Assembly: GCA_016193315.1 (NCBI GenBank)
Contig: JACPSJ010000001.1
Location: 284,446-348,445 of the forward strand
Length of the DNA: 64,000 bases
Reading direction: 5' to 3'
Source of the DNA: Candidatus Kerfeldbacteria bacterium
GTDB taxonomy: Bacteria > Patescibacteriota > Patescibacteriia > SBBC01 > CAIJZX01
Positions 9,701-51,179 of the stretch are shown in pieces. Numbering within the stretch: the first letter of the stretch is position 1; each line of letters starts with the position of its first letter. The translations under genes and the position numbers were made by a program. Under the pieces are notes generated by a model. The model did not search any database. It was not told the DNA's origin and saw nothing but the letters and a program-made list of their open reading frames with translations.

Positions 9701-11153
9701 GGAACGTGGCTGGGTCAGCCTCCGCGGGCTTAACTCCACCGACCCGCCGCTCGGCATCATCATCCCCGGCGGCGGGACATGGCTGTACGGCTGCCAAGTC
9801 TGCAGCGGCGCGGCCGTCGATTCACTGACCTGCCAGTTTTGCCAAGATGGAAAGAACCGTAGTTGTGCCCCGCCGCCGACCAGCTGCACTAATTTTTGCG
9901 ACGGCGACATTACCAAAGCGCACTGCTCGCAAAACGTCCATTGCCCAGGCGGCGAAGTGTGTAAACCGGCCGGATTCTGTGCTTGGAGCGGTGAGAGGTG
10001 CACATCCGATGCTGAATGTGTAGCCAGTAGTGGCGGCCGCTGCATTTTCGGCGCCCTCTGTCCGACCACCGGTTCCAGTTGCCAGGAGTATGGCGTCAAC
10101 TTGAGCTCAGAGAACGGTCGATTCTACGGCTATGCCTGGAGTCCGGATTACGGTTGGCTCGATTTCGGACTCCTCAGTCGGGGCAGCCGCCGCTACATCC
10201 AAGCCACGCTCGGCGACATCTACTCTCAGGGCGGCATTGGATCGGAAAGTACCCTCCCGGCGCCGAGCGGCAAGAGCAACGCCACCTTTGCCATCTCCGC
10301 CGCCGGCACGATTAATAACTTTTCCACCACGTTTGCGCCGGCGGCGGTTGACTTCGACGTTTCCCGTTCACTGGCGCCGTTCATCCCCTCGCTGACCGAG
10401 CGCAACAAGTACGCTTCGGCGCTCGGCCGACTCGATCTCGATGGCATTGCCAATGAAGCGACGGGGGGCAGCGGGATCAACAAGTATGGCTCGCGCATCG
10501 TCGCTTTGACGACCGCCGGCCCGAACGATGATATCGCCAGTGACTGGAACAGCCAGCTGGACCTGGGCGGTGGCAACACTGGCCGGTTGGACGGACGCGT
10601 GTTCAGGGCCGGCACCAGCGGCCAGACGCTGACGATTGAAAACGGTGTGCGGATTAGGAATGCCACTAACGCCGCCCCCTACCGTCACGGGTCCGGCATG
10701 CTGATCGTCGAGGGCGACCTGTACGTCAAGGAAGACGTCACCTATGGCGCCAGCACGGTCCAGGATTTGCGGACGCTGGCCTCGCTGATGGTCTGGGTCA
10801 AAGGGGACTTGATGATCGATAACCACGTGACCCAGCTGGCGGGAAATTACCTGGTCGAAGGCACCATCTGTACTGGCCAGAAAGAACCCTACGGGGCCGC
10901 GGACCCGCCGGCGTGCGATCCGGTCCGCGTCGGGCCGTTCGGCGGGCCGACGTCCGACAATGTCTTCCCCCTGACCGTCCGCGGCGTCATGCTGGCCAAG
11001 AAGTTCTTCTTCGCCCGCACCTTCGCCGGGACGATCGACAATCCCTCGCCCTCGGAGTTGGTCATCAACGATGGCCGACTGCAAACAAACCCCTTGCCCG
11101 GCCTGACGGACTTCGCCAATGTGCTGCCCAGCACGGTCAACACCGGTCCGTAG
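6792..11153 (+). CDS. giant (1453 aa) membrane-anchored Cys-rich surface protein
   Basis: Single long ORF. N-terminal TM anchor (FRLLILAVGLGFLLIIGGW). Several Cys-dense stretches (CSAGRCTENNLLCGGDSDC; CQFCQDGKNRSCAPPPTSCTNFCDGD...). The ORF is uninterrupted over 4.3 kb. Confidence 0.6.
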   Translation: MNKHLILPPRIRVARATYGFRLLILAVGLGFLLIIGGWNLFRATRAEFEVPLIDTTFLARADLRDVWSYFRNTRTLGSLSPDYTGSLGTNEFVHALAVGETTDGRASVIQLRNGKWEQVMPVAVNNGTEYRIDGAFNAIAGAYEDGGGYADFFVGGYDSTTGRAIIRSASTLDSRIFAGCSASAGRLQPCDLAMAFQNNNNQLYSLPGGSTEIYAMDAVPRFLGRKYAGGVNGLFLEWVQAPNATNTCSAGRCTENNLLCGGDSDCRSNRWDTVTAGPPFLGSSEDITGVALVQGDLTYITTSTFAGTKPYDRVCGAGQRSKLYRLVGRPTTGDWTTLIDTGGTGVCFYGLAADTKYTFPGDHGPLQGVVWIAAGRSDGSGAVYRFDEGTGVTSISSTAQGVTTPVYSVTALPDRGGDGQNILTNGDFEAWSVRSPIVTDPNVRPDQWPHTDESKWGRNNPGASCGQNSMDVRIVDSTQVAGVNGYGIRQAPGIYFDDQLKCLTNLSVDRKRNASASSYNRVDLSTIEGTTFKVSGRYKVTFDPAADSPQYPQGGVMIQCQGANYPSSVDCSFSNFREVRTLSQGNSSLDSRSDANGFINFSYTFSRQNNQFLTPILGGTSGPRVLERGEVLEIRCYATYGVDVVCDDLAVEPVNSPNKTPRFNYTVIAVGENDPGNPNAFVNRDGLGSTTFVPEDDTEWPDLNAVHGFGQQQVFTVGADSTILQRTPGNVLGYVWLGSASPVDLGRAGLGWISTTCINHRTPGGTLCLRSPESFALTVENNQLIGRAWVGKNYGTAPGGADKESANLGRCRRASLPSPTASGAPYDKSGACNTASRTCVANANQACLRDFDCYGRCEKNEGFICVSDADCRASPFAAAAPFDSTGSRLAREPRVGLECAQSNASPSACAGGGWLTFSASEFTDTPPNAINPNNDCGVSGGACLDAASGQLKGWGQFMTLAQSPAPNGDPERGWVSLRGLNSTDPPLGIIIPGGGTWLYGCQVCSGAAVDSLTCQFCQDGKNRSCAPPPTSCTNFCDGDITKAHCSQNVHCPGGEVCKPAGFCAWSGERCTSDAECVASSGGRCIFGALCPTTGSSCQEYGVNLSSENGRFYGYAWSPDYGWLDFGLLSRGSRRYIQATLGDIYSQGGIGSESTLPAPSGKSNATFAISAAGTINNFSTTFAPAAVDFDVSRSLAPFIPSLTERNKYASALGRLDLDGIANEATGGSGINKYGSRIVALTTAGPNDDIASDWNSQLDLGGGNTGRLDGRVFRAGTSGQTLTIENGVRIRNATNAAPYRHGSGMLIVEGDLYVKEDVTYGASTVQDLRTLASLMVWVKGDLMIDNHVTQLAGNYLVEGTICTGQKEPYGAADPPACDPVRVGPFGGPTSDNVFPLTVRGVMLAKKFFFARTFAGTIDNPSPSELVINDGRLQTNPLPGLTDFANVLPSTVNTGP

Positions 11154-24502: not shown

Positions 24503-27393
<2,891 letters not shown>

Positions 27394-31448: not shown

Positions 31449-31997
31449 GCTGGTTTTTTCTTGCCAAAAGCGAAGCCGCAGAGTACGCTGAAGCCGCCCC
31501 ATCCCTCATCGTTGTTCGATACATCTGTCCTTGGAGCGCTGAATCCCCCCGGCTCGTGGGCCGAGGGTCTGGCGCAACCGGCGGCCAAAAAGCTGCGGCA
31601 GGACGCTCAAGTGCTCCTTCGCGAAGTACTGGAGTTGTCCGACAGCAGCCCTCGTCATTCGTAACGGCGAGGAATCAGGCCCGCTTACCATGAGTTGAGG
31701 ACACGGTGAGGATGGGGTTCGAGCGGCATCCGGTCGTACGACCGGATAGCGAGCAAACTGCTTTGCTCGCGGCCGCGAGAACGGGCGAGCCGATGCTTCG
31801 AGCGGAGCGAGGAGCCGGATCGCCCAGGGGAAATTGCCAAAATATCAGAAAAATATTTCTAATGGAGCATGGTGCCTCCGTAAAATCCTGCTGTCCCGGG
31901 ATCACGGGGCAGGCAGTTGGCAGCCCCGCGCAACAACTCGCAAGCTCGCGGTCTGTGGGGTAAACGCGCATATTGATAAAACATCGTCAGCTCGGGT

Positions 31998-32070
31998 CGG
32001 GGTGTGGCGCAGCTGGTAGCGCGCTTGCATGGGGTGCAAGAGGCCGTGGGTTCAAATCCCGCCACCCCGA
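31998..32070 (+). tRNA. tRNA-Pro (anticodon GGG)
   Basis: Cloverleaf read by eye. Acceptor CGGGGTG/CACCCCG, D-arm GCGC-AGCTGGTA-GCGC, anticodon arm CTTGC-ATGGGGT-GCAAG, T-arm GTGGG-TTCAAAT-CCCGC, discriminator A. CCA not encoded. Confidence 0.8.
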
Positions 32071-32108
32071 CCCGAGCTGGTAGCGCATGCATGGGGGTCG
32101 AGGCCGCA
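32071..32108 (+). pseudogene. degenerate partial copy of the tRNA-Pro D-arm/anticodon-arm region
   Basis: GAGCTGGTAGCGC-ATGCATGGGGGT-CGAGGCCG parallels tRNA positions about 14-48 (AGCTGGTAGCGC / TGCATGGGG / GAGGCCG). No T-arm or acceptor. Confidence 0.3.
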
Positions 32109-32446
32109 ACGCGAAGCGCATGTTTCGACGCCGAGTTTGACGAGGCGAGGAACGGCGAGGCCCCGGACCGAGGCGGGCTTGCGAGACGAGAGGCAACAAA
32201 CCGCTTTCTTCCGACCGGCGAGATGGGTGACGCGATTCCCCAACCCGATCGTGGGCGCGACACCCCGGAGCTGAAGATCCCGGGTTTCCGGCAAAGCTGG
32301 ATCCGGCTCGGCCGGACAAATCCCGGTACCCCGACCATTGGGAACAATGCGTCTAACACTTCTCGTTAGTGTCGCGATAGTCATCGGGCTCTATATTCTT
32401 ATCGGCCCGCCTCGGCGGTCATACGGCCGACCGAACCTACGCCGGC

Positions 32447-32842
32447 GTGGTACAAGACTGCAGTACCTCGAAGCCCGTGGCCGCGGAGGTGCAAATCTCC
32501 GGGACCGAACGACGTTTTAACTGGCGCATCTTTCCCTTCCCGATCTGGGATTTTCCGGTTGGCGCAGAGACGGCAACTGACAACCAGGGCAGATTCTCAG
32601 CCCGGCTGAAGGTAACTGACGAAACTGCTACACTCCACGCGCGGAAAGATGGATATCTTGCCGCTGAACAGGTTGATACAGCAGGAACCAACATTGTCAT
32701 TGGCCGGTTAAAGAAAACCACCGCCCATAAACCGGCCGAGTTTACGACCCGCTGCAAACTCAGCAGTGAGTGTCTTGTAACCACCACCGAGACCGATGCT
32801 CAGGGACGGGCCATCCAGGTGACAAAAAACGTTTGTCAGTAG
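32447..32842 (+). CDS. CarboxypepD_reg-like beta-sandwich domain protein, probably frameshifted from an upstream TM-anchor ORF (32347-32415)
   Basis: Motifs FPVGAETATDNQGRFSARL...KDGYLAAEQVDTAGTNIVIGRL match carboxypeptidase-regulatory-like domains. The only start is GTG. A +1 frame upstream encodes MRLTLLVSVAIVIGLYILIGPP and then Arg-rich nonsense. Confidence 0.35.
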   Translation: MVQDCSTSKPVAAEVQISGTERRFNWRIFPFPIWDFPVGAETATDNQGRFSARLKVTDETATLHARKDGYLAAEQVDTAGTNIVIGRLKKTTAHKPAEFTTRCKLSSECLVTTTETDAQGRAIQVTKNVCQ

Positions 32843-32944
32843 TTTGACGAATACTGATTATCCGCGGGATACGGAGCCGGCATTGACTCTTTAGCCCGGC
32901 GATGGTAGGCCAGGAGTGTAATTGTTGACCGGACGGATTCGAGA

Positions 32945-33451
32945 ATGTGGAGGGCAACCAACACGTTCTTTCAAGCATGGTGTGAGGAGGTGATGGAAAT
33001 GAAGCCCCAGGTAGAGTGGGCGTTCGGCACTTGGCCGGAGTTGACCAGATTCAACCCGCGATTCAGCGCGGAGGCGCCTAAGATCCTGCTGGAAGTGGTA
33101 ATCCCGAACGAAGCGCCTTACGCCACCGTCGGCGTGGCGCCACTGTTCCGTTGTTTGAGCCACCGTCGCCCATCCCTGAAGCGCATTCGCTGCGGGGCCG
33201 GGGACAGGAGCCTGCACCTGACCGGCGAACAGCTAGTCGACCTGGCGCACTTATTCGAACACTACCTGACCTGCGTTCTCGGGCGTCATCTGCCAGGCCC
33301 GCGGGTCAGCGGCGTAACGCTCGTACCGGTGCGCGACGGGCAACCTTTCAGGATCTACGTTGAGTGCTGGTCGAACCAGCAGCGTTCCCTGCGGCTCTTG
33401 GCCTTGGCTGGCGGGGAATTTCTCCAGACGCTCAATCAGTTAGCAGCTTGA
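32945..33451 (+). CDS. hypothetical protein
   Basis: 168-aa ORF. No family recognised. Start ambiguous (M1, M17 or M19). Confidence 0.35.
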   Translation: MWRATNTFFQAWCEEVMEMKPQVEWAFGTWPELTRFNPRFSAEAPKILLEVVIPNEAPYATVGVAPLFRCLSHRRPSLKRIRCGAGDRSLHLTGEQLVDLAHLFEHYLTCVLGRHLPGPRVSGVTLVPVRDGQPFRIYVECWSNQQRSLRLLALAGGEFLQTLNQLAA

Positions 33452-33465
33452 CGGCACGATACTGA

Positions 33466-33822
33466 TTGGGCGTTTTTTCTTGTCCGACGATGAAGTCGCC
33501 AGGCGAGGTGCCCCTGACACAGTTTGCAAGTTGCCAGAATTGCGCTAGGCTGGTAGCAGAGATAACCACTGCGCTCATGCCCGAAACCATGGACGAGCAA
33601 GAACAAGCCTTGGCCGATCAACTCTCCTTTGACGCCGAGGAACTACACCGTATCGACCATGAATTAGAAGTGCACGACGTGCCACCTGAACGACGGGCGG
33701 ACGTGCACGACAAACTTTCGCTGCCAAGTACGGTTGGCTACGACGACCGACGGTTTTCCATCACCCGCAATCTCCACCATGGCTGGAACCTGGAGTGGCA
33801 CGATCAGCGTCGGGCGGCGTAA
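33466..33822 (+). CDS. hypothetical acidic protein
   Basis: 118-aa ORF, Glu/Asp-rich middle, CQNCARL motif. No family recognised. Confidence 0.35.
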   Translation: MGVFSCPTMKSPGEVPLTQFASCQNCARLVAEITTALMPETMDEQEQALADQLSFDAEELHRIDHELEVHDVPPERRADVHDKLSLPSTVGYDDRRFSITRNLHHGWNLEWHDQRRAA

Positions 33823-33825
33823 GAG

Positions 33826-33850
33826 AAAAACCTCCAGCTGGTGCGGGAGG
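33826..33850 (-). terminator. intrinsic terminator for the minus-strand 183-aa gene
   Basis: CCTCC-AGCTGGTGCG-GGAGG stem followed on the minus strand by a T-run (plus strand AAAAA at 33826-33830). Confidence 0.4.
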
Positions 33851-33866
33851 ATTGACGACGAAAGGG

Positions 33867-34418
33867 CTAATACTTACCGACGTACCGCAGCAGCGGCTCG
33901 CCGTCGACAATGACTACCTCGTAGTTGTGTTGTCGGAGTGATTGGCGTCGCTCTTCAGCTTCGGCTAGGACCCGCTGGTGCTGAACGAAGAACTGATGAT
34001 GGGCGGCGAGCTCCTGGAGTTCAGACCGATTCGACTGCCGCGATGCGACGCTGGCCGAGCGCTCGCGGCGATGGGCCGGCCGACCACGCTTCCTAGCTTG
34101 GTGCGGCCGGGACTTGGTCTTCGCGGCTTGGGAGGCCCGCTGTTGGCCCGTTTGGCCTTCAATCGAGAATGGGCGCCGCACGACCGACGTTACGTTCGGC
34201 CCACGATGACCACGCTTGGGTTTGGGCCGTCGCAACAGGCCTTTCGAGAGCAGGCCTTGGTAGCGCGACATGCCCTTGTCCCCGAACTGGGCGGTCAGCT
34301 GGGCGGTCAGATTTCGAACATCGAACTGCCGAGCTTTGCCGGTCCGGTCCAGCGACAGCAGGAAACGATAGGTCTTCGCTTGGACGAGAGTTAGGACCAA
34401 AGATCCGGATTGAGCCAT
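33867..34418 (-). CDS. putative winged-helix protein with conserved C-terminal HHQFF...GEPLLR domain (short paralog)
   Basis: GGAGGTGA RBS. N-terminus LVLTLVQAKTYRFLLSLD...KGLLRR has a wHTH-like pattern. Basic linker. The C-terminal 50 aa are shared with the 34553-36271 product. Confidence 0.55.
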   Translation of the reverse strand: MAQSGSLVLTLVQAKTYRFLLSLDRTGKARQFDVRNLTAQLTAQFGDKGMSRYQGLLSKGLLRRPKPKRGHRGPNVTSVVRRPFSIEGQTGQQRASQAAKTKSRPHQARKRGRPAHRRERSASVASRQSNRSELQELAAHHQFFVQHQRVLAEAEERRQSLRQHNYEVVIVDGEPLLRYVGKY

Positions 34419-34504
34419 AGTTCACCTCCAAAGAGCAGGGAGAAATTGGCCACCGTGGACAGCCAAACCCTAGCCGAACCGCCCTGACCTTGTCAACGGA
34501 GTCT

Positions 34505-34535
34505 AAAAAAAGCGACCAGCCTTGACAGCTGGTCG
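34505..34535 (-). terminator. Rho-independent terminator (minus strand) for the 572-aa gene
   Basis: CGACCAGC-TGTCAAG-GCTGGTCG hairpin followed on the minus strand by TTTTTTT (plus-strand A7 at 34505-34511). Confidence 0.55.
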
Positions 34536-34552
34536 GGGGACAGGAAACGTGG

Positions 34553-36271
34553 TTATCGCTTCCGGCGACGAAGGAGCGGTTCGCCCTCAACGGATACGAT
34601 CTCCCAGCCGAGTGCCCGCAGCACGGCGGCATGAGCGTCCCGCTCGGTCAGGAGGCGCTCCGCAGCCTCGAGTTCAGTCTGTCGCTCGATGAAGAATTGA
34701 TGGTGGGCAGAAGCGGCAGATGGGCTCGAGGGTTGGTCGGCCGTGGGACTGGGCTTCGAATCACTGGCCATGGGTCCTTGAGTCTGTCCTGGTCGAGTGG
34801 ACGGGGCGGGCGATCGAGTTGTGGTCCCGCCTGTGGCCGGAGTTGGGACTCCCGACCTGGCTTGCAGGTCGTTTGGCCGGTTGGTATCGGTTGACGGTCG
34901 GGCAGCTTGGCTCGCCCGATCGGACTTTGGTAGTCGCAGTGGAATCGGGTCAGCCCGGACTCCTGAGGATGTGGATTCAACGGTGGTGTAGCCTACCCGC
35001 CGGACGAACTTCCGGCCGTCCCGGTCGACGATCAACCCCTTCCCGACCAGCGGCGTATAGCGATTCGAACCGCTGGTGTCAGTGAACCGCCGGCCGAGCT
35101 TGGTGGTTATCCCATCTAGCGGGAATTCGTCGCCTTCTGCCGGTCCGAGGCCGAGCAGGTAATCATAGGATTCGGCCTGCTTTGACGTCAGGGTCACTAC
35201 CGCACGTTGTTGTGAAGGAGGCGCTGGTGGAGACGCCGGTCGTGTGTTAGACAGAGCCGTCTGCGCCCGGGCAGGAGGCGGAGCGACAACAGGTGCTGGC
35301 GACCGCTCCCCCGTTGCTGGAGTTGCGAGGAGGGCCTGAATTTCCTTCGCCAGCCGTGGTAAATCCTGACCAGCCTTCGGGCTCGCCAGAAGCTCCTGTT
35401 CTTGAATTCCTGCGTAGAAGGTCACGACTACCAGATTCTGGCGGGTCGAGACCGTGGGTATCCGAGGAGCTAAGTCGTCAGTCCGCTCGGCGAAACGATG
35501 CATCCGTACATATTGTACACTGGGGTGAACGGCGATCCGGGCCGCAACTTCTTGAGCGCCGGGAATCGGGCTGAAGTCCATAGCTATTCGCCGGCCGTCG
35601 AGGATCGGTGTATCGAGCGGCTGATCGTCTCGACGCAAGACTGACCCCTCGGCGTTTCTTTCTCCGCGTTGGACTAGGCTTGTTACTCCCGACCGGATTC
35701 GGCCGAGCGCACCCCGGTCCTTCGGCGCGATCGTGATGATCTGTCTCTGGCCGGCCGCGGTGACGATGACTTCGATGTTTCCGCTCCGCTCTTTCCAAGT
35801 TGATGGCCCTGATTCTTGAGTCGCCGGAGTTGGCTCCTGCTGCTCGACGTACTGGACGCCCGGGATCTCCGCCAGCTGTTCGGCTAGGCGCTGCGCTCCC
35901 GGGATCCACTTGGCGACATCGCCATATACTTCGGCTGCCGTGGACATGGATTCCTCCTGGTCTGCTCCCTGGGGCGCTCGACCATTGGTAGTTGGGGGCG
36001 AAGCGAGCGCATGCGCGATCGCTGGTTTAAGGTCAGCTGGACTAACAAACGGTTGTGGCACGACGAACAAGAACTGCAGTTCACTGCCGCGACGATAACG
36101 GACCAAGAGTTCGGTGCGGAGAGGTACGAGTTGCGGTTCAGGCCGTGTGTCCTTGACCGTCGCCGTCGTGCCCTGGCGAACACACTCCACACCGGGTAGA
36201 TTATTCAGGAGACGGGCGACCTCTTCGGCCCCGTCTACCCACCGAAACATCGGATTTGGTAGGACGGGCAT
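34553..36271 (-). CDS. 572-aa protein: three tandem ~95-aa PGAxxVAxxLxxxPGVxYV repeats, Pro-rich linker, wHTH-like domain and C-terminal HHQFF...GEPLLR domain (long paralog)
   Basis: AAGGAG RBS. Internal repeats at about aa 8-75, 110-180 and 215-290. Segment VVTLTSKQAESYDYLLGL...GKGLIVDRDGRKFVRRVGY parallels the N-terminus of the 183-aa neighbour. Identical C-terminal motif. Confidence 0.6.
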   Translation of the reverse strand: MPVLPNPMFRWVDGAEEVARLLNNLPGVECVRQGTTATVKDTRPEPQLVPLRTELLVRYRRGSELQFLFVVPQPFVSPADLKPAIAHALASPPTTNGRAPQGADQEESMSTAAEVYGDVAKWIPGAQRLAEQLAEIPGVQYVEQQEPTPATQESGPSTWKERSGNIEVIVTAAGQRQIITIAPKDRGALGRIRSGVTSLVQRGERNAEGSVLRRDDQPLDTPILDGRRIAMDFSPIPGAQEVAARIAVHPSVQYVRMHRFAERTDDLAPRIPTVSTRQNLVVVTFYAGIQEQELLASPKAGQDLPRLAKEIQALLATPATGERSPAPVVAPPPARAQTALSNTRPASPPAPPSQQRAVVTLTSKQAESYDYLLGLGPAEGDEFPLDGITTKLGRRFTDTSGSNRYTPLVGKGLIVDRDGRKFVRRVGYTTVESTSSGVRADPIPLRLPKSDRASQAARPSTDTNRPNDLQARSGVPTPATGGTTTRSPAPSTRPGQTQGPMASDSKPSPTADQPSSPSAASAHHQFFIERQTELEAAERLLTERDAHAAVLRALGWEIVSVEGEPLLRRRKR

Positions 36272-36583
36272 GGCTCGATCTCCTTCCGCACGGCGCGGAT
36301 TCGGGTCACACTTTTCAATGGGCAGATCTTCAGTCTAGCCGAGATGGCTGTGCTGTCAAGTAAGATGCCACTCAAATTATTTTGTGATTGATCGGAAATC
36401 TTGATAGACTTCCGATGTGTGACAGGGTGATACTGTCCGGCGCGGTGGCCAAACCGCGGGGGCGAATGTAGAACGTACCAGTTTAGGTTCATGGCCTGAC
36501 TGCGTTGTTCGCGTTACCTGATGGCTGGGATTTCGTTATACTATATGTAGGCCATAGATTCTAAGCTATGATTTCCCCAGGGC

Positions 36584-46123: not shown

Positions 46124-46762
46124 ATGTTCTCGATCCAAACGCTCTTCTCTGACCCGCTCCGATTCGTGGTTGGTTTTCTGGCCTTGGCCGTCTCGATCGG
46201 TATCCACGAATTCGCTCACGTCCTGGCCGCCGACCTCCAGGGTGATTCCACCGGTCGGTCGCTCGGTCGGCTGACGCTCAACCCGCTCCGGCACCTCGAT
46301 CCGCTCGGCACGATCGCCATCCTGATCGCCGGCATTGGCTGGGGCAAGCCAGCGCCGTTCAATCCGTACAACCTACGTTTTCGACGCTGGGGACCGGCGT
46401 TGGTGGCGGTGGCTGGCCCGATCGCCAATATCGTGATGCTCATCCTGGCCGGCTATGCCCTGGTGATACTCCAAGCCAGCCTGGGAAACGATAATCTCCT
46501 CCGCCTTTTCTTGCATACCCTGGTCATCCTCAATGCGGCCCTGGCAGTCTTTAATCTCATCCCGGTTCACCCGCTTGACGGGTCACATCTGCTGCGGGCC
46601 CTCCTGACACCAGTCAACCCATTGGTCCAATGGGTTGAGCAGTACGGGGTCTACCTCCTGTTGGGTATTCTGTTCTTCGGCGGCGCGATTCTCAATCTGT
46701 ACATTGTGACCGGCATTCGTTGGCTGCTGACCGCGGTCGGGTTGAGTGGCTTATTCTTGTGA
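46124..46762 (+). CDS. site-2-protease-like M50 family metalloprotease
   Basis: HEFAHVLAA (HExxH) in TM1, further TM helices, LDGSHLL motif. Confidence 0.6.
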   Translation: MFSIQTLFSDPLRFVVGFLALAVSIGIHEFAHVLAADLQGDSTGRSLGRLTLNPLRHLDPLGTIAILIAGIGWGKPAPFNPYNLRFRRWGPALVAVAGPIANIVMLILAGYALVILQASLGNDNLLRLFLHTLVILNAALAVFNLIPVHPLDGSHLLRALLTPVNPLVQWVEQYGVYLLLGILFFGGAILNLYIVTGIRWLLTAVGLSGLFL

Positions 46763-46810
46763 CAGTTGACGGCCAGCGGGGGTTGATGGTAGAGTACCAA
46801 TGGTTCACTC

Positions 46811-46842
46811 GCTTGTTCGTCGCCCTGACGAAGCGCGTTTTT
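46811..46842 (+). terminator. intrinsic terminator-like hairpin + T5 between the M50 gene and rpsL
   Basis: CGC-TTG-TTCGTC-gccc-TGACGAA-GCG, then CG, then TTTTT. Confidence 0.35.
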
Positions 46843-46882
46843 AGTCCCGACCATAATACCTAATACCTAGATTGCAGATCCA

Positions 46883-47299
46883 ATGCCCACCATGAGTCAA
46901 CTCGTCCGCCATGGGCGGACAACGCATCCACCGAAGTCGAAAACTCCGGCCCTGGAGTCGATCATGAACGCCGTTCAACGCCGACGAACGTATTTGCCAA
47001 AAGGCAGCCCGTTTAAGCGCGGTGTGTGCATCAAAGTCACGACCACCACGCCGAAAAAGCCGAATTCAGCGCTGCGGAAAATTGCCCGGGTGCGGTTGTC
47101 GAATGGCCAGGAAGTGACGGCCTACATCCCCGGCATTGGTCATAACCTCCAAGAACACTCCATCGTTCTTATCCGCGGTGGCCGAGTCAAAGACTTGCCT
47201 GGTGTGCGATACCACATCGTCCGTGGCGTCTACGACACCCAAGGCGTCCCGGAACGAAAACAAGGCCGCAGCCTGTACGGCGCCAAGCAACCGAGCTAA
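46883..47299 (+). CDS. rpsL: 30S ribosomal protein S12 (with ~14-aa internal insertion)
   Basis: [72 protein letters not shown]. Confidence 0.95.
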
Positions 47300-47316
47300 C
47301 CATCGAATGATCGACT

Positions 47317-47781
47317 ATGCGCAGCAAACGAGCGCCGATTCGTCGGGTCGAACCTGACCCGACGTATGAATCGGAGACCGTCGCCAAGTTCATCAACACT
47401 ATCATGGAGCGTGGCAAGAAAACGGTGGCCCGCCGGATTGTGTATGGCAGCTTTCAGGTAATTGAGTCTAAGGTCCAGCAGTCGCCGGTTCAGGTTTTTG
47501 AGCAGGCGGTCAAGAATGTCGGTCCCGTGGTCGAAGTGAAATCGCGGCGGGTCGGCGGCGCTAATTACCAGGTGCCGATCGAAGTCGGCCCGAAACGGCG
47601 GCAAGCCCTAGCCTTCCGCTGGCTGATCGCCGCGGCCAAAGCCAAACCCGGGCGCCCGATGTATGCCAAGCTGGCTGACGAGCTGATGCAAGCGGCCCAG
47701 AACCAAGGCGACGCCATCAAGAAGAAACAAGACGTCCATCGCATGGCTGAGGCCAATCGGGCTTTTGCTCACTTTGCTTAG
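47317..47781 (+). CDS. rpsG: 30S ribosomal protein S7
   Basis: Full-length S7 ([22 protein letters not shown]..., [11 protein letters not shown]). Confidence 0.95.
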
Positions 47782-47869
47782 ATCGAGCGTGGGCGAACTT
47801 CCGAAAAGTCCAGAAGCCGGGAATCCTGACCGTCCACCGCACGACGAACGGGAGCGGGCGGATTTGTCC

Positions 47870-48247
47870 ATGGAAAAAGTTTTAGCTGATTGGGAGGTTC
47901 AAGCCGAAGAACAGCTGCCGCCCGGCGACCCGACCCGACCGAAGACCGGTGACACAAAGGCTGAAACGGGGTTTTCCGAGAGCGATCTCGAACGCCTCAA
48001 CCAGGAACTCGAGACCTTGGCCGGGAACGTTTCAGAGAGGCTCGAGGAGTTGGCCAGGCGGGACCCCGGTGATCCGACATATATTGATTATCGCGATCTC
48101 AATGATCGCATTGATGAGATGAGATCTGTGACCGAAGCCATGGCCAAGGATGAGGCGCTCAGTCAGGAGCAGCGATTCTTCTGGACCCGGATGTACGTCT
48201 CAATGCTCCGCCGGCTGCGGCAAGACCTGGATCGGATTACCGAATAG
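47870..48247 (+). CDS. hypothetical acidic coiled-coil protein inserted in the str operon
   Basis: ORF 47765-48247 overlaps the rpsG 3' end. First ATG at 47870. Glu/Asp/Arg-rich. No family. Confidence 0.3.
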   Translation: MEKVLADWEVQAEEQLPPGDPTRPKTGDTKAETGFSESDLERLNQELETLAGNVSERLEELARRDPGDPTYIDYRDLNDRIDEMRSVTEAMAKDEALSQEQRFFWTRMYVSMLRRLRQDLDRITE

Positions 48248-48272
48248 GTATCCGACAGTTCGCGCATCTGCC

Positions 48273-49091
48273 ATGATTATCGTCACCCATCGCAAACCCC
48301 ACCTCGACGAAGTGGTGGCGGCGTGGTTACTAAAGACCTTTGATCCGGCTTTCAGAGACGCCGGCTTTGAGTTTGTTCCCTACCGCCCTACCGGTGGCCA
48401 GCCGCCGACCGGCCCGCAGTATGTATCGATTGGCATCGGTCACGGCAAGTTCGATGAGCACAACCAACAGGCCGGGCACTCAGCTACGCAGCTCGTCTAC
48501 CGCGACTTGCTCCACCGCGGGCTGATCCCGAACGACCGGTTTGAAGACAAAGCGCTCGAGTGGCTGGTGGAATACAGTCACCAGGAAGACACCGCCCACT
48601 GGCGGGTGACCGACCCCGTGCTACGCAGTTTCATGTTGCCGGCGATCCTCCGCGGTTACGCTCTGCTGAATCCGGACGACCCCAGTCCAGTGATGATGAC
48701 CAAGGGCCTTGACCTTATTGAGGCGGTGGTGGCGCAACTCGATGAACTAGCAAAATTCTTGGTCGATTGGGACCGTCGCGTCGAATTCGTCTCACGGTGG
48801 GGCAAAGCGGTCGGCGTCCATAGTTCATTCCGGTCGGCCGACGCGTTTGCTTACCATCATGGCTTTGTGCTCTGTGCCCAGACCGACCCACGCAAGCCAT
48901 ATGGTAACTTCCGGGCGCGAGCCGACAGCCAGGTCGACTTAACCCCGGTCTATGAACAGCTCCAGGCGCAGGAGCCCGGCGCCTGGTACCTACACCAAAC
49001 GAAGAGAGTGCTCCTGTCGAATGTTGACCCGGCCACTGGCCGCCAGCCGACGCGGATGACGCTTGAGCAGCTGATTGAACTAGTCACATAG
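48273..49091 (+). CDS. MYG1/UPF0160-like metal-dependent hydrolase
   Basis: IVTHRKPHLDEVVAAWLL...SIGIGHGKFDEHNQQ matches the THxGxFHxDE ... GG.YD...DHHQ pattern. Start at ATG 48273. Confidence 0.5.
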   Translation: MIIVTHRKPHLDEVVAAWLLKTFDPAFRDAGFEFVPYRPTGGQPPTGPQYVSIGIGHGKFDEHNQQAGHSATQLVYRDLLHRGLIPNDRFEDKALEWLVEYSHQEDTAHWRVTDPVLRSFMLPAILRGYALLNPDDPSPVMMTKGLDLIEAVVAQLDELAKFLVDWDRRVEFVSRWGKAVGVHSSFRSADAFAYHHGFVLCAQTDPRKPYGNFRARADSQVDLTPVYEQLQAQEPGAWYLHQTKRVLLSNVDPATGRQPTRMTLEQLIELVT

Positions 49092-49097
49092 ACGAGC

Positions 49098-51179
49098 ATG
49101 CCCCGAGAATACGCCCTCGAACACACGCGGAACATCGGCATCATTGCTCATATTGATGCGGGGAAAACAACCGTCTCTGAACGAATATTATTTTACACCG
49201 GTAAGAAACACAAAATAGGGGAAGTTCACGAAGGCGAGGCGGAAATGGATTGGATGGCGCAGGAAAAAGAGCGGGGGATTACGATTACCGCCGCGGCCAC
49301 GACCTGCTTCTGGAAGGCCCAGCGGATCAACTTGATAGATACGCCCGGCCATATTGATTTCACGGTTGAGGTGCAACGAAGTTTGCGCGTTCTCGACGGC
49401 GGGGTGGTCGTCTTTGATGGCGTGGCCGGCGTTGAGCCGCAATCAGAAACGGTCTGGCACCAAGCTGAGAAGTTCGGGGTGCCGCGGATTTGTTTCATTA
49501 ACAAGATGGACCGCATCGGCGCCGATTTCTATGCCGATCTACAATCGATCCACGAGCGCCTGACGCCGCATGCCATCCCGCTCCAGCTGCCGATCGGCGC
49601 GGCGGAAACGTTTCGTGGAATCATCGACCTCTTCGAACGGAAGGCTCGGATCTACCAGGACGAATTAGGAAAAGAATGGCAAGACACCGACGTTCCACCT
49701 GAGATGAATGAGCAAGTCGAACAACATCGACACCGACTGGTCGAAGCGGTGGCCGAACAGGATGACGCGCTGCTCGAAAAATATCTTCACGGCACCGAAC
49801 CCACGGTGGCCGAGCTGAAAGCCGTGCTGCGGCGGGCGACGATTATGAACCGGCTGGTCCCGGTTCTGTGCGGCTCGGCTCTCAAGAACAAGGGCGTTCA
49901 GTTCTTGCTCGACGCCATCGTTGAGTACTTACCCTCGCCACTCGACGTACCGGCCATCAAAGGCGTTGATCCGAAGACGAACGCCGAGCTTGAGCGCCAT
50001 GCGTCTGATGCTGAGCCGTTTGCGGCGTTGGCGTTCAAGATCGCGGCTGATCCGTTTGTGGGGAAACTGGCCTTCTTCCGGGTCTACTCCGGCACCATCA
50101 GTGCCGGGTCCTACGTCCTCAACACCACCACCGGCAACAAAGAGCGGGTAGGCCGGATCGTTCGGCTCCACGCTAACCACCGTGAAGATGTCGAGGAAGT
50201 CTATGCCGGAGAAATCGCGGCCGCCGTCGGCTTGAAAGGCACGGCCACCGGCGATACGCTCTGCGACCCTGAGCACCCGATCAAACTCGAGAATATCACC
50301 TTTCCCGAACCAGTCATCGACATCGCCATCGAGCCGAAAACGAAACAAGATCAGGAAAAGATGGGGTTGGCGCTTGGCCGGCTGGCCGAGGAAGACCCGA
50401 CGTTCCGCGTCCGGGCCGACGAGGAAACCGGGCAGACGGTTATTTCCGGCATGGGCGAGCTGCACCTGGAAATTATCGTTGACCGAATGAAACGCGAATT
50501 CAAAGTCGAAGCCAGCGTCGGGCGTCCCCGGGTCGCGTACCGTGAGACGATAACCGCTCCCGCCGAGGGGGAAGGAAAATACATCCGTCAGTCCGGCGGT
50601 CGGGGACAATACGGACATTGCTGGATCCGGGTCGAACCGAAGGCTCGCGGCGAAGGGTTTGAATTCGTTGATGAGGTCAAAGGTGGCGTCATCCCTCATG
50701 AATACATCCTGCCGATTCAGAAAGGGATCAAGGAGGCGATGGACAATGGCGTGGTGGCTGGTTATCCGATGGTCGACTTGACAGCGACAGTCTTCGATGG
50801 CTCGTACCACGAGGTCGATTCCTCGGAAGGGGCCTTCAAGATTGCCGGCTCGATCGGTTTCAAGGAGGCAGCCAAGCGGGCCAAACCGGTGCTCCTCGAA
50901 CCGATCATGAAAGTAGAGGTCATCACCCCGGAAGCGAGCATGGGCGACGTGCTCGGCGACTTGAACGCCAAACGCTCAGTCATCAAAGAAATGCGCAACC
51001 GCGGTCAAGCCAAGGTCATTGATGCCGAGGTGCCGCTGGGTGAGATGTTTGGCTACGCGACCAGCCTACGCTCGATGACCCAGGGCCGGGCTTCGTTCAA
51101 TATGGAGTTTGCGCACTACCAACCGGTGCCGAAGAATGTGGCGGCCGCAATTATAGGCGACCAAGAGAAAACGGCATAA
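49098..51179 (+). CDS. fusA: elongation factor G
   Basis: [15 protein letters not shown]-domain and all five EF-G domains. 693 aa. Confidence 0.95.

Follow-up and report, generated by a model that had tools for sequence, protein, structure and literature searches.

How does a bacterial tRNA gene come to lie inside a perfect palindrome, with the pieces of a second tRNA gene strewn just behind it? This question is raised by a tRNA-Pro(GGG) gene in a 64,000-nucleotide (nt) stretch of the genome of a Candidatus Kerfeldbacteria bacterium, the whole of which we call the window. A sequence-only reading of the locus had proposed that the gene, with its complementary flanks and an adjacent degenerate half-copy, marks an integration or recombination scar on the edge of a degraded island reaching from 32.07 to 36.3 kb. 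Our results point instead to a recurrent, little-described replacement of tRNA genes across lineages of the ultra-small bacteria of the candidate phyla radiation (CPR), and not to a 4-kb foreign island. The locus comprises the following features.

31988–31997, forward strand: 5′ arm of the palindrome, CAGCTCGGGT, directly upstream of tRNA position 1 (repeat search)
31998–32070, forward strand: live tRNA-Pro(GGG), from position 1 to the discriminator (ARAGORN, Rfam RF00005, cloverleaf in the minimum-free-energy fold)
32070–32079, forward strand: 3′ arm of the palindrome, ACCCGAGCTG, beginning with the discriminator A (repeat search)
32075–32096, forward strand: fragment (a), tRNA positions 14–37 from the D-arm to the anticodon loop, ending in ...GCATGGGG (local alignments)
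32097–32173, forward strand: module of two hairpins, HP1 and HP2, after the anticodon-loop junction (Logan version of the sequence, alignment with the relative L120, folds)
32255–32278, reverse strand: fragment (b), inverted leader (ATCtTCAGCTC) and tRNA positions 1–13 (alignment score)
32317–32337, forward strand: fragment (c), displaced old 3′ end with T-loop, TACCCCG, discriminator A and encoded CCA (18/20 match)

The live tRNA is well defined, as the sequence-only reading had claimed: ARAGORN places a tRNA-Pro with anticodon ggg at 31997–32073, Rfam family RF00005 matches 31998–32070 with 64.4 bits (gathering score 29) and the predicted fold contains the cloverleaf. It is the sole Rfam match between 31850 and 32500, with E-values of up to 10 included. 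The gene encodes no CCA, its 3′ end reading ...CACCCCG-A-CCCGAG. When a 47-mer of the tRNA was scanned against a genome collection that does not hold the source genome, one match was found, in a distant Patescibacteria metagenome-assembled genome (MAG; L003), whose tRNA region is identical to that of the window at 76 of 77 positions; a degenerate tRNA pattern gave no matches in a metagenome scan.

The inverted repeat that encloses this gene (31988–32004 and 32063–32079, arms CAGCTCGGGTCGGGGTG and CACCCCGACCCGAGCTG) is 17 nt long and 100% complementary, one base longer than the helix of about 16 bp that had been noted before. It consists of the 7-bp acceptor stem and 10 flanking pairs, and in the minimum-free-energy fold of 31970–32125 the resulting 17-bp helix closes a normal cloverleaf. 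The trailer of the window, ACCC-GAGCT, resembles the trailer ACCA-CAGCT of the closest relative that reaches the tRNA (L116), and the leader contains, in addition, 9–10 nt that reproduce the window trailer exactly in reverse complement. In palindrome-free relatives ...TCGT(C) abuts position 1, and these 9–10 leader nt are absent. The palindrome-enclosed tRNA, which we refer to as the cassette, is flanked on both sides by AGCT, itself palindromic and part of the inverted repeat, and the last 5 nt of the 3′ arm (AGCTG) are shared with the start of the half-copy behind it. Logan contigs of five sequencing runs (L004–L010, against window positions 32018–32117) all end or start inside the tRNA or just past it, so the locus breaks short-read assemblies; palindromic tRNA loci do so and can also mislead tRNA annotation.

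Behind the live gene lie pieces that jointly make up a second tRNA: positions 14–49 in direct orientation, the leader with positions 1–13 inverted, and positions 56–76 with CCA, again direct. The first is the half-copy already recognized in the sequence-only reading, which holds up: 32075–32106 aligns to tRNA positions 14–49 with two small indels and scores 16.5, where random window pieces have a 99th percentile of 10.6. Its tRNA-like sequence stops within the anticodon loop, a place where integrases classically cross over, and gives way to non-tRNA sequence beginning GTCGAG (junction GCATGGGG/GTCGAG). Fragments (b) and (c) lie outside the interval previously considered (31984–32110). Fragment (b) scores 13.0, above the maximum of 12.5 for 300 random window pieces. 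Since its match to the leader's reverse complement continues past the palindrome, it is no direct copy of the 3′ end. Fragment (c), displaced by 264 nt downstream of the live gene, matches the 20-mer from the T-loop to the 3′ end at 18 of 20 positions (32317–32336), with none expected in 100 shuffles. It reads ...TACCCCGACCA, that is, ...TACCCCG-A-CCA, and differs from the live gene in having T66 for C66 and an encoded CCA where the live gene has none. Its acceptor strand TACCCCG is the type found in L116, L120 and L121 (CACCCCG in the live gene), and a CCA is likewise encoded in five of nine palindrome-free relatives (L003, L035, L045, L056 and L116). Quite possibly these pieces are the wreck of an earlier, CCA-encoding tRNA-Pro of the same locus. 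That part of the earlier proposal which saw a scar of integration or recombination is thus strengthened by the displaced 3′ end with its CCA and by the anticodon-loop break.

The sequence that follows the anticodon-loop junction is itself structured, which the window assembly obscures. Logan contigs from five runs of the same project, 100% identical otherwise, carry 45 nt after 32117 that the assembly does not have; the full version of the module (L009/L010) contains the HP1 core that is missing from the window assembly. With these 45 nt the post-junction sequence folds with z = −4.7, whereas the window version folds poorly (z = +1.5). The scar measures about 270 nt as deposited and about 315 nt in the true sequence of the population. 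The Logan version of the module is homologous to that of L120 over about 120 nt (score 29 versus 10.4 ± 2.0 for shuffled sequences, z = 9.4). In the HP1 inner stem, four of nine pairs differ on both sides between the window and L120 around an unchanged CTGC loop, and compensated changes are found in the HP2 closing stem as well. The modules of the window (Logan version), L120 and a minimal version in L065 all form two adjacent hairpins, with z from −4.7 to −6.1. We downgraded the GTCGAG signature of L065 as proof of homology: past the junction motif and the two-hairpin layout, z is about 1.

The missing 45 nt are one of four gaps defined against otherwise identical Logan contigs of the same population, at about 29752, after 32117, after 36420 and at about 43700 (about 66, 45, 60 and 98 nt). 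They take out the N-terminus of nucleoside diphosphate kinase (NDK), the HP1 core and the C-terminus of an aminotransferase (399 to 384 amino acids, aa), and they probably reflect local misassembly of the deposited MAG.

We compared the locus with 80 CPR loci collected through the neighbouring M50-peptidase gene, near which a tRNA-Pro(GGG) gene occurs in 10; closer relatives were reached through the NDK gene, the 197-aa neighbour of the tRNA being an ORFan. Three further CPR lineages share the set seen in the window, namely a CCA-less tRNA-Pro, a leader–trailer repeat (perfect in two, imperfect in one) and pieces of an older tRNA-Pro.

L120 (related groundwater genome, syntenic): a number of displaced 5′ pieces, positions 1–37 with the GTCGAG module, then the palindrome-enclosed tRNA, then the old 3′ end with CCA
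L065: upstream, positions 1–37 with GTCGAG hairpins; a 27-nt perfect inverted repeat; downstream, a copy of positions 41–55
L077/L087: positions 1–34, an intact tRNA, then positions 35–73; an imperfect leader–trailer repeat

The break point GCATGGGG/GTCGAG is common to the window, L120 and L065. The palindromes of these three, that of L120 being a perfect 19-nt inverted repeat with a CCA-less tRNA-Pro inside, enclose tRNA-Pro(GGG) with unrelated sequences; the five pairs nearest the tRNA show a compensated change between the window (CGGGT/ACCCG) and L120 (CGAGT/ACTCG). In L077/L087 the outer anticodon stem is compensated and the whole folds as one rod. Across 40 CPR tRNAs, the leader–trailer duplex energy reaches p ≤ 0.006 in five, where about 0.25 would be expected.

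Fragments occur only beside palindrome-bearing genes (window, L065, L077/L087 and L120); alongside the nine palindrome-free tRNA-Pro(GGG) genes, five of which encode CCA, we detected none. Among these nine, L003 encodes CCA and its leader ...ACATCGT abuts position 1; L035 also encodes CCA; neither has a palindrome or fragments. L116, whose NDK is 79% identical and whose ligA–gatCA–response regulator–NDK order is syntenic, carries the tRNA on the opposite strand relative to NDK, with leader ...GTCGTC and trailer A-CCA-CAGCT and again with neither palindrome nor fragments. Relative to NDK, the tRNA is on the plus strand in the window and L121 and on the minus strand in L116, L120 and L065.

Two comparisons bear on where the pieces came from. 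The displaced 5′ half in L120 is identical to the live tRNA of the window at 36 of 37 positions and to L120's own at 34 of 37, which suggests possible exchange between lineages. Between L077 (9400–9760) and L087 (1854–2214), a block of 165 nt consisting of palindrome arm, tRNA, arm and old 3′ half is unchanged, with flanks that differ by about 10% or cannot be aligned, and the old 3′ end is exactly where homology stops; there L077 carries an additional methyltransferase gene.

Further pieces are found in L120. Upstream of its main set (10700–10945, reverse strand) lie displaced tRNA-Pro 5′ pieces, one with a leader, CAGCTCGTCGGGT, similar to the 5′ arm of the window, and two copies of a unit of about 55 nt made of a D-arm piece, a hairpin CCCGCCATGCGGCGGG and then ...CCTCGAGC. 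A second CCA-bearing 3′ fragment is located 1.6 kb downstream, past an open reading frame (ORF) of 357 aa; we considered this ORF, which stands between tRNA 3′-end repeats, as an integrase and rejected it, as the product looks secreted and has no Pfam match.

Other tRNAs in the collection have copies of their own. An intact tRNA stands beside a near-identical truncated copy with a two-hairpin loop insert in L107 (478–660, reverse strand; also in L111) and in L088 (1819–1997). For the tRNA-Arg(GCG) of L107 the copy consists of positions 25–56, a 54-nt insert in the T-loop and positions 57–77 with CCA; for the tRNA-Thr(TGT) of L088 it consists of positions 1–19, a 62-nt insert in the D-loop and positions 17–30. 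In L072 (16672–16806) a tRNA-Thr(GGT) sits between the hairpin arms GCCCGCC...GGCGGGC with AAATTT on both sides, and a tRNA-like 5′ piece, GCCCAGATAGCTCAGGAAGCAGAGC, lies upstream.

The account that we favour, though tentatively, is a decayed integration in which the host tRNA was not rebuilt, the tRNA-Pro brought by the element was left as the single live copy, and a local inverted duplication came later. An integrating element would have recombined with the resident gene in its anticodon loop, giving the junction ...ATGGGG/GTCGAG..., and left that tRNA unrebuilt while bringing a complete, CCA-less tRNA-Pro(GGG) inside a perfect leader–trailer palindrome. This element-borne tRNA, as the sole working copy, would have been retained while the remaining element was deleted, leaving the split halves of the old gene and the two-hairpin module from the element's end. 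With the resident copy dead, the incoming tRNA would have to be kept and the other parts of the element could be lost, which would account for tiny scars that always come with one live tRNA. Because the window has an inverted remnant where L120 has its cassette, and its live copy lies 5′ of the old D-arm, we infer a later local inverted duplication that would have put the live copy there, joined at the palindromic AGCT, with the earlier cassette persisting only as the inverted fragment (b). In the transcript, the 17-bp helix would need cleaving or opening, with RNase III as the most plausible agent, ahead of RNase P cleavage and of 3′ processing followed by CCA addition. Three details speak for this account: the difference in acceptor strand and CCA between the live gene and the displaced 3′ end, the 36/37 match of the L120 5′ half, and the unchanged 165-nt block of L077 and L087.

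tRNA genes are classic landing sites for mobile DNA, and the target is usually rebuilt; islands and prophages in tRNA genes, a subject that Williams treated in 2002, are said to leave a regenerated tRNA and a displaced 3′ fragment. As in the tRNA-integrated islands and prophages of the Islander concept (PMC4383910), the window has a displaced direct 3′ end with CCA downstream of a live gene, and break points in the anticodon loop and the T-loop. Unlike in those islands, the repeat is 264 nt away and not kilobases, there is no integrase, 5′-half and inverted pieces are present, and the old gene is not regenerated from an att-borne 3′ half. A closer parallel is the tRNA-dependent lysogeny demonstrated experimentally for mycobacteriophages, in which integration in the anticodon loop does not reconstruct the host tRNA and the element carries a same-isotype tRNA (Guerrero-Bustamante & Hatfull 2024, PMC10865867). 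As that mode of integration demands, the host tRNA in the window is divided across a very short core within its anticodon region and the junction does not restore it; the outcome is a pair of split host halves with one live tRNA of the same isotype that would have come in with the element. The window differs in having no integrase or prophage and only about 0.3 kb left at the locus, in its CPR host, in a live tRNA that is palindrome-enclosed and CCA-less, and in the conserved two-hairpin module after the junction. If the account holds, a resident tRNA gene has been destroyed and replaced by an incoming copy that outlived its element, a fossil trace, recurrent in CPR bacteria, of a mechanism known so far only from mycobacteriophage experiments. 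Because CPR tRNA sets are minimal, each such event would replace a possibly essential single-copy gene.

Several observations weigh against a decayed integration. We found no integrase, phage gene, transposase or intact element at the loci of the window, L065, L077, L087 and L120, and a scan of viral contigs for this tRNA core gave no match. The order in the window (live tRNA, old 5′ piece, module) departs from the nested order in L120, L065 and L077, so that an extra rearrangement has to be assumed, and several simple crossover or inversion schemes worked by hand did not reproduce it. The hosts of the window and L120 loci are related (62–66% amino-acid identity), so the shared module could be inherited and not independently acquired; the relatives as a group are star-like at 62–74% identity, and host distances do not separate vertical inheritance from transfer of the cassette. 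The old tRNA copies are variably incomplete across loci, and the case for a foreign origin of the live tRNA turns on a few nucleotide differences. Finally, all 42 extension pairs in the three lineages with perfect palindromes are Watson–Crick, with no G–U, so a process of DNA copying fits at least as well as a structure borne by an element.

Other candidates were set aside. The 22-nt 3′ end of the tRNA is no specific viral link, since it is a generic att sequence in proviruses of other bacteria. The 14-mer GCATGGGGGTCGAG has at least 120 matches in viral contigs, none of those listed with a tRNA context, and we ascribe them to chance. A group I intron, or an outer tRNA that contains an intron, was rejected: Rfam matches nothing here but the tRNA, the outer copies are incomplete to varying degrees and the outer 5′ half drifts between L077 and L087.

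A different kind of explanation concerns what the palindrome does, and it is compatible with any origin. The leader and trailer of ribosomal RNA operons pair into long helices around the mature RNA, and RNase III cuts these processing stems. The helix around the tRNA may similarly be a selected precursor-processing signal from which RNase III frees the CCA-less tRNA, a possibility that we consider real but doubtful. It is like the ribosomal stems in that a long, perfect leader–trailer helix encloses an RNA, and unlike them in that a single tRNA is enclosed and the cleavage is putative. To our knowledge, no such helix is a standard feature of bacterial tRNA genes; perfect leader–trailer helices of 17–27 bp around single bacterial tRNAs are unusual and raise the question of how precursors mature in CPR bacteria. 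In favour of a processing stem, helices of 17, 19 and 27 bp with unrelated sequences are stacked on the acceptor stem in three lineages, with an imperfect one in a fourth; the pairs nearest the tRNA are compensated between the window and L120; and palindrome-bearing genes are all CCA-less, whereas the five CCA-encoding tRNA-Pro(GGG) genes all lack a palindrome. In addition, a published study (PMC9433436) reports that bacterial RNase P is inhibited when the leader pairs with the 3′ end, in which case the helix must be dealt with before 5′ maturation; RNase III cleavage would be the most plausible way. Nine tRNA-Pro(GGG) genes manage without the helix, however, and the absence of G–U among 42 extension pairs is unusual for a structure maintained purely at the RNA level.

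That pairing pattern also speaks for a reading that dispenses with mobile DNA, namely that replication errors at a quasi-palindromic tRNA gene provoked template switching and partial tandem and inverted duplications, the acceptor palindrome being extended by copying the complement of the trailer into the leader and the partial copies then decaying. In template switching of the type described by Ripley, an imperfect palindrome is made longer and perfect by copying of one arm, and the window resembles this in that all pairs are Watson–Crick and acceptor stem and flanks form one perfect palindrome. The extra 9–10 leader nt are the exact reverse complement of a trailer like that of L116, and in L116, L003 and L035 ...TCGT(C) stands directly at position 1. 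Palindrome and half-copy are joined through a 5-nt microhomology, the palindromic AGCTG; pieces occur in both direct and inverted orientation, and truncated copies without palindromes adjoin other CPR tRNAs (the Arg and Thr genes of L107 and L088). A tRNA 3′ end is also repeated in the distal parts of Escherichia coli tRNA operons such as tyrT, where tandem, tRNA-linked repeats of one unit follow closely on a live gene; unlike the window, they have no palindrome, no 5′-half copies and no anticodon-loop junction. Template switching leaves unexplained why L120 has the identical anticodon-loop break followed by a homologous structured module, why the break recurs at one junction, and why the outer pieces are contiguous around the insert in L077 (1–34/35–73) and L065 (1–37/41–55). 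Nor does it account by itself for a split older gene whose displaced 3′ end is of another acceptor type and keeps its CCA, for the foreign module, or for clean two-hairpin inserts in otherwise near-identical copies. We consider it somewhat unlikely, and still a serious rival, given that no element was found, that the hosts are related and that all pairs are Watson–Crick.

The same considerations keep in play a small mobile tRNA cassette that has no recombinase of its own, which we regard as unlikely. Here the palindrome-enclosed tRNA, with or without the two-hairpin module, would be the mobile unit, moved by an enzyme encoded elsewhere, in the manner of miniature inverted-repeat transposable elements or palindrome-associated elements, into single-stranded loops of cognate tRNA genes, whose function it would take over. 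Its terminal inverted repeats would take in the acceptor stem, palindromes form its outermost bases at either end (AGCT in the window, TTTCGAAA in L065, AAATTT in L072 and L077), and inserts sit in the anticodon loop, D-loop or T-loop. The 165 nt that are unchanged between L077 and L087 amid diverged flanks suit such a unit, as does the lack of a recombinase gene nearby. Against it, neither the cassette nor the module nor the inserts recur in the window or the relatives' loci, a result that also led us to reject multi-copy repeat families for the inserts; nothing points to a particular transposase family; and the palindromic 'target duplications' are indistinguishable from inverted-repeat ends. 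Taken further, and just as improbably, CPR bacteria might harbour an addictive, homing tRNA cassette, complete in itself with CCA-less tRNA, perfect palindrome and two-hairpin end module, that, lacking a recombinase, destroys the resident copy in an exposed loop and so becomes indispensable. With similarly low likelihood, the palindrome of such a cassette could double as a recombination hairpin in single-stranded DNA and, once transcribed, as a processing stem.

For 32.07–36.3 kb, a classical island or prophage remnant bounded by tRNA-derived att repeats is very improbable: although synteny with relatives stops at the tRNA, the genes at 32.4–36.3 kb have no homologs at the relatives' loci and the same 22-nt tRNA-Pro 3′ end bounds proviruses of other bacteria on both sides, the sole tRNA 3′-end repeat is 264 nt off and not near 36.3 kb, composition is normal, no integrase or phage family matches, and 36.3 kb is no boundary. 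The far att repeat that the sequence-only reading expected is absent near 36.3 kb with up to three mismatches allowed. Besides the copy 264 nt away, the only tRNA-end repeat in the window is a 3-mismatch match (17/20 to the 3′-end 20-mer) in the ligA coding sequence at 25590–25609 on the forward strand, most likely a chance match. The compositional deviation that an island might show is likewise missing, 32073–36300 being ordinary in tetranucleotide usage (z = +1.0, rank 14 of 86) and the G+C fraction about 0.60 throughout.

Upstream of the tRNA, ligA, gatCA, a response regulator, NDK and two small ORFs are syntenic among relatives, and no shared gene order continues past it, so that the tRNA marks a synteny break. 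The expectation that 32.4–36.3 kb would be variable is correct insofar as its genes lack homologs at the relatives' loci, but the genes past 36.3 kb lack them too, and 36.3 kb is therefore not a boundary. The five ORFs between 32.4 and 36.3 kb, which gene calls on Logan contigs show as intact (121, 150, 110, 183 and 572 aa), have no credible match in Pfam or PHROG apart from one sub-threshold CarboxypepD_reg hit and no match to an integrase or phage family, in keeping with the absence of an integrase remarked on earlier. The 572-aa ORF and the 197-aa ORF immediately before the tRNA are ORFans known only from their own genome, and a search among 5.8 billion proteins returned no homolog of the 572-aa ORF except itself. 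It (34553–36271, reverse strand) and the adjacent 183-aa ORFan (33867–34418, reverse strand) are paralogs (BLASTP E = 2e-15) that share the C-terminal motif HHQFF...GEPLLR.

At a larger scale, tRNA-Pro(GGG) is loosely linked, in the 10 of 80 loci and in many CPR lineages, to the M50-peptidase gene followed by rpsL, rpsG and fusA (window 46124–51179; L003 4302–8000; L034–L113). About 14 kb of other genes separate the tRNA from this cluster in the window, compared with about 3 kb in L003.

Lastly, a conserved intergenic block of about 210 nt lies a short way upstream of the tRNA (window 31515–31725, forward strand; L116 8498–8720; L120 8587–8795; L117 6172–6380). It matches no Rfam family at E-values of up to 10. 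The block is 70–78% identical in four Kerfeldbacteria-like genomes, and its consensus fold of 61 pairs, with 20 compensated double changes, makes it a candidate for an unannotated structured RNA.

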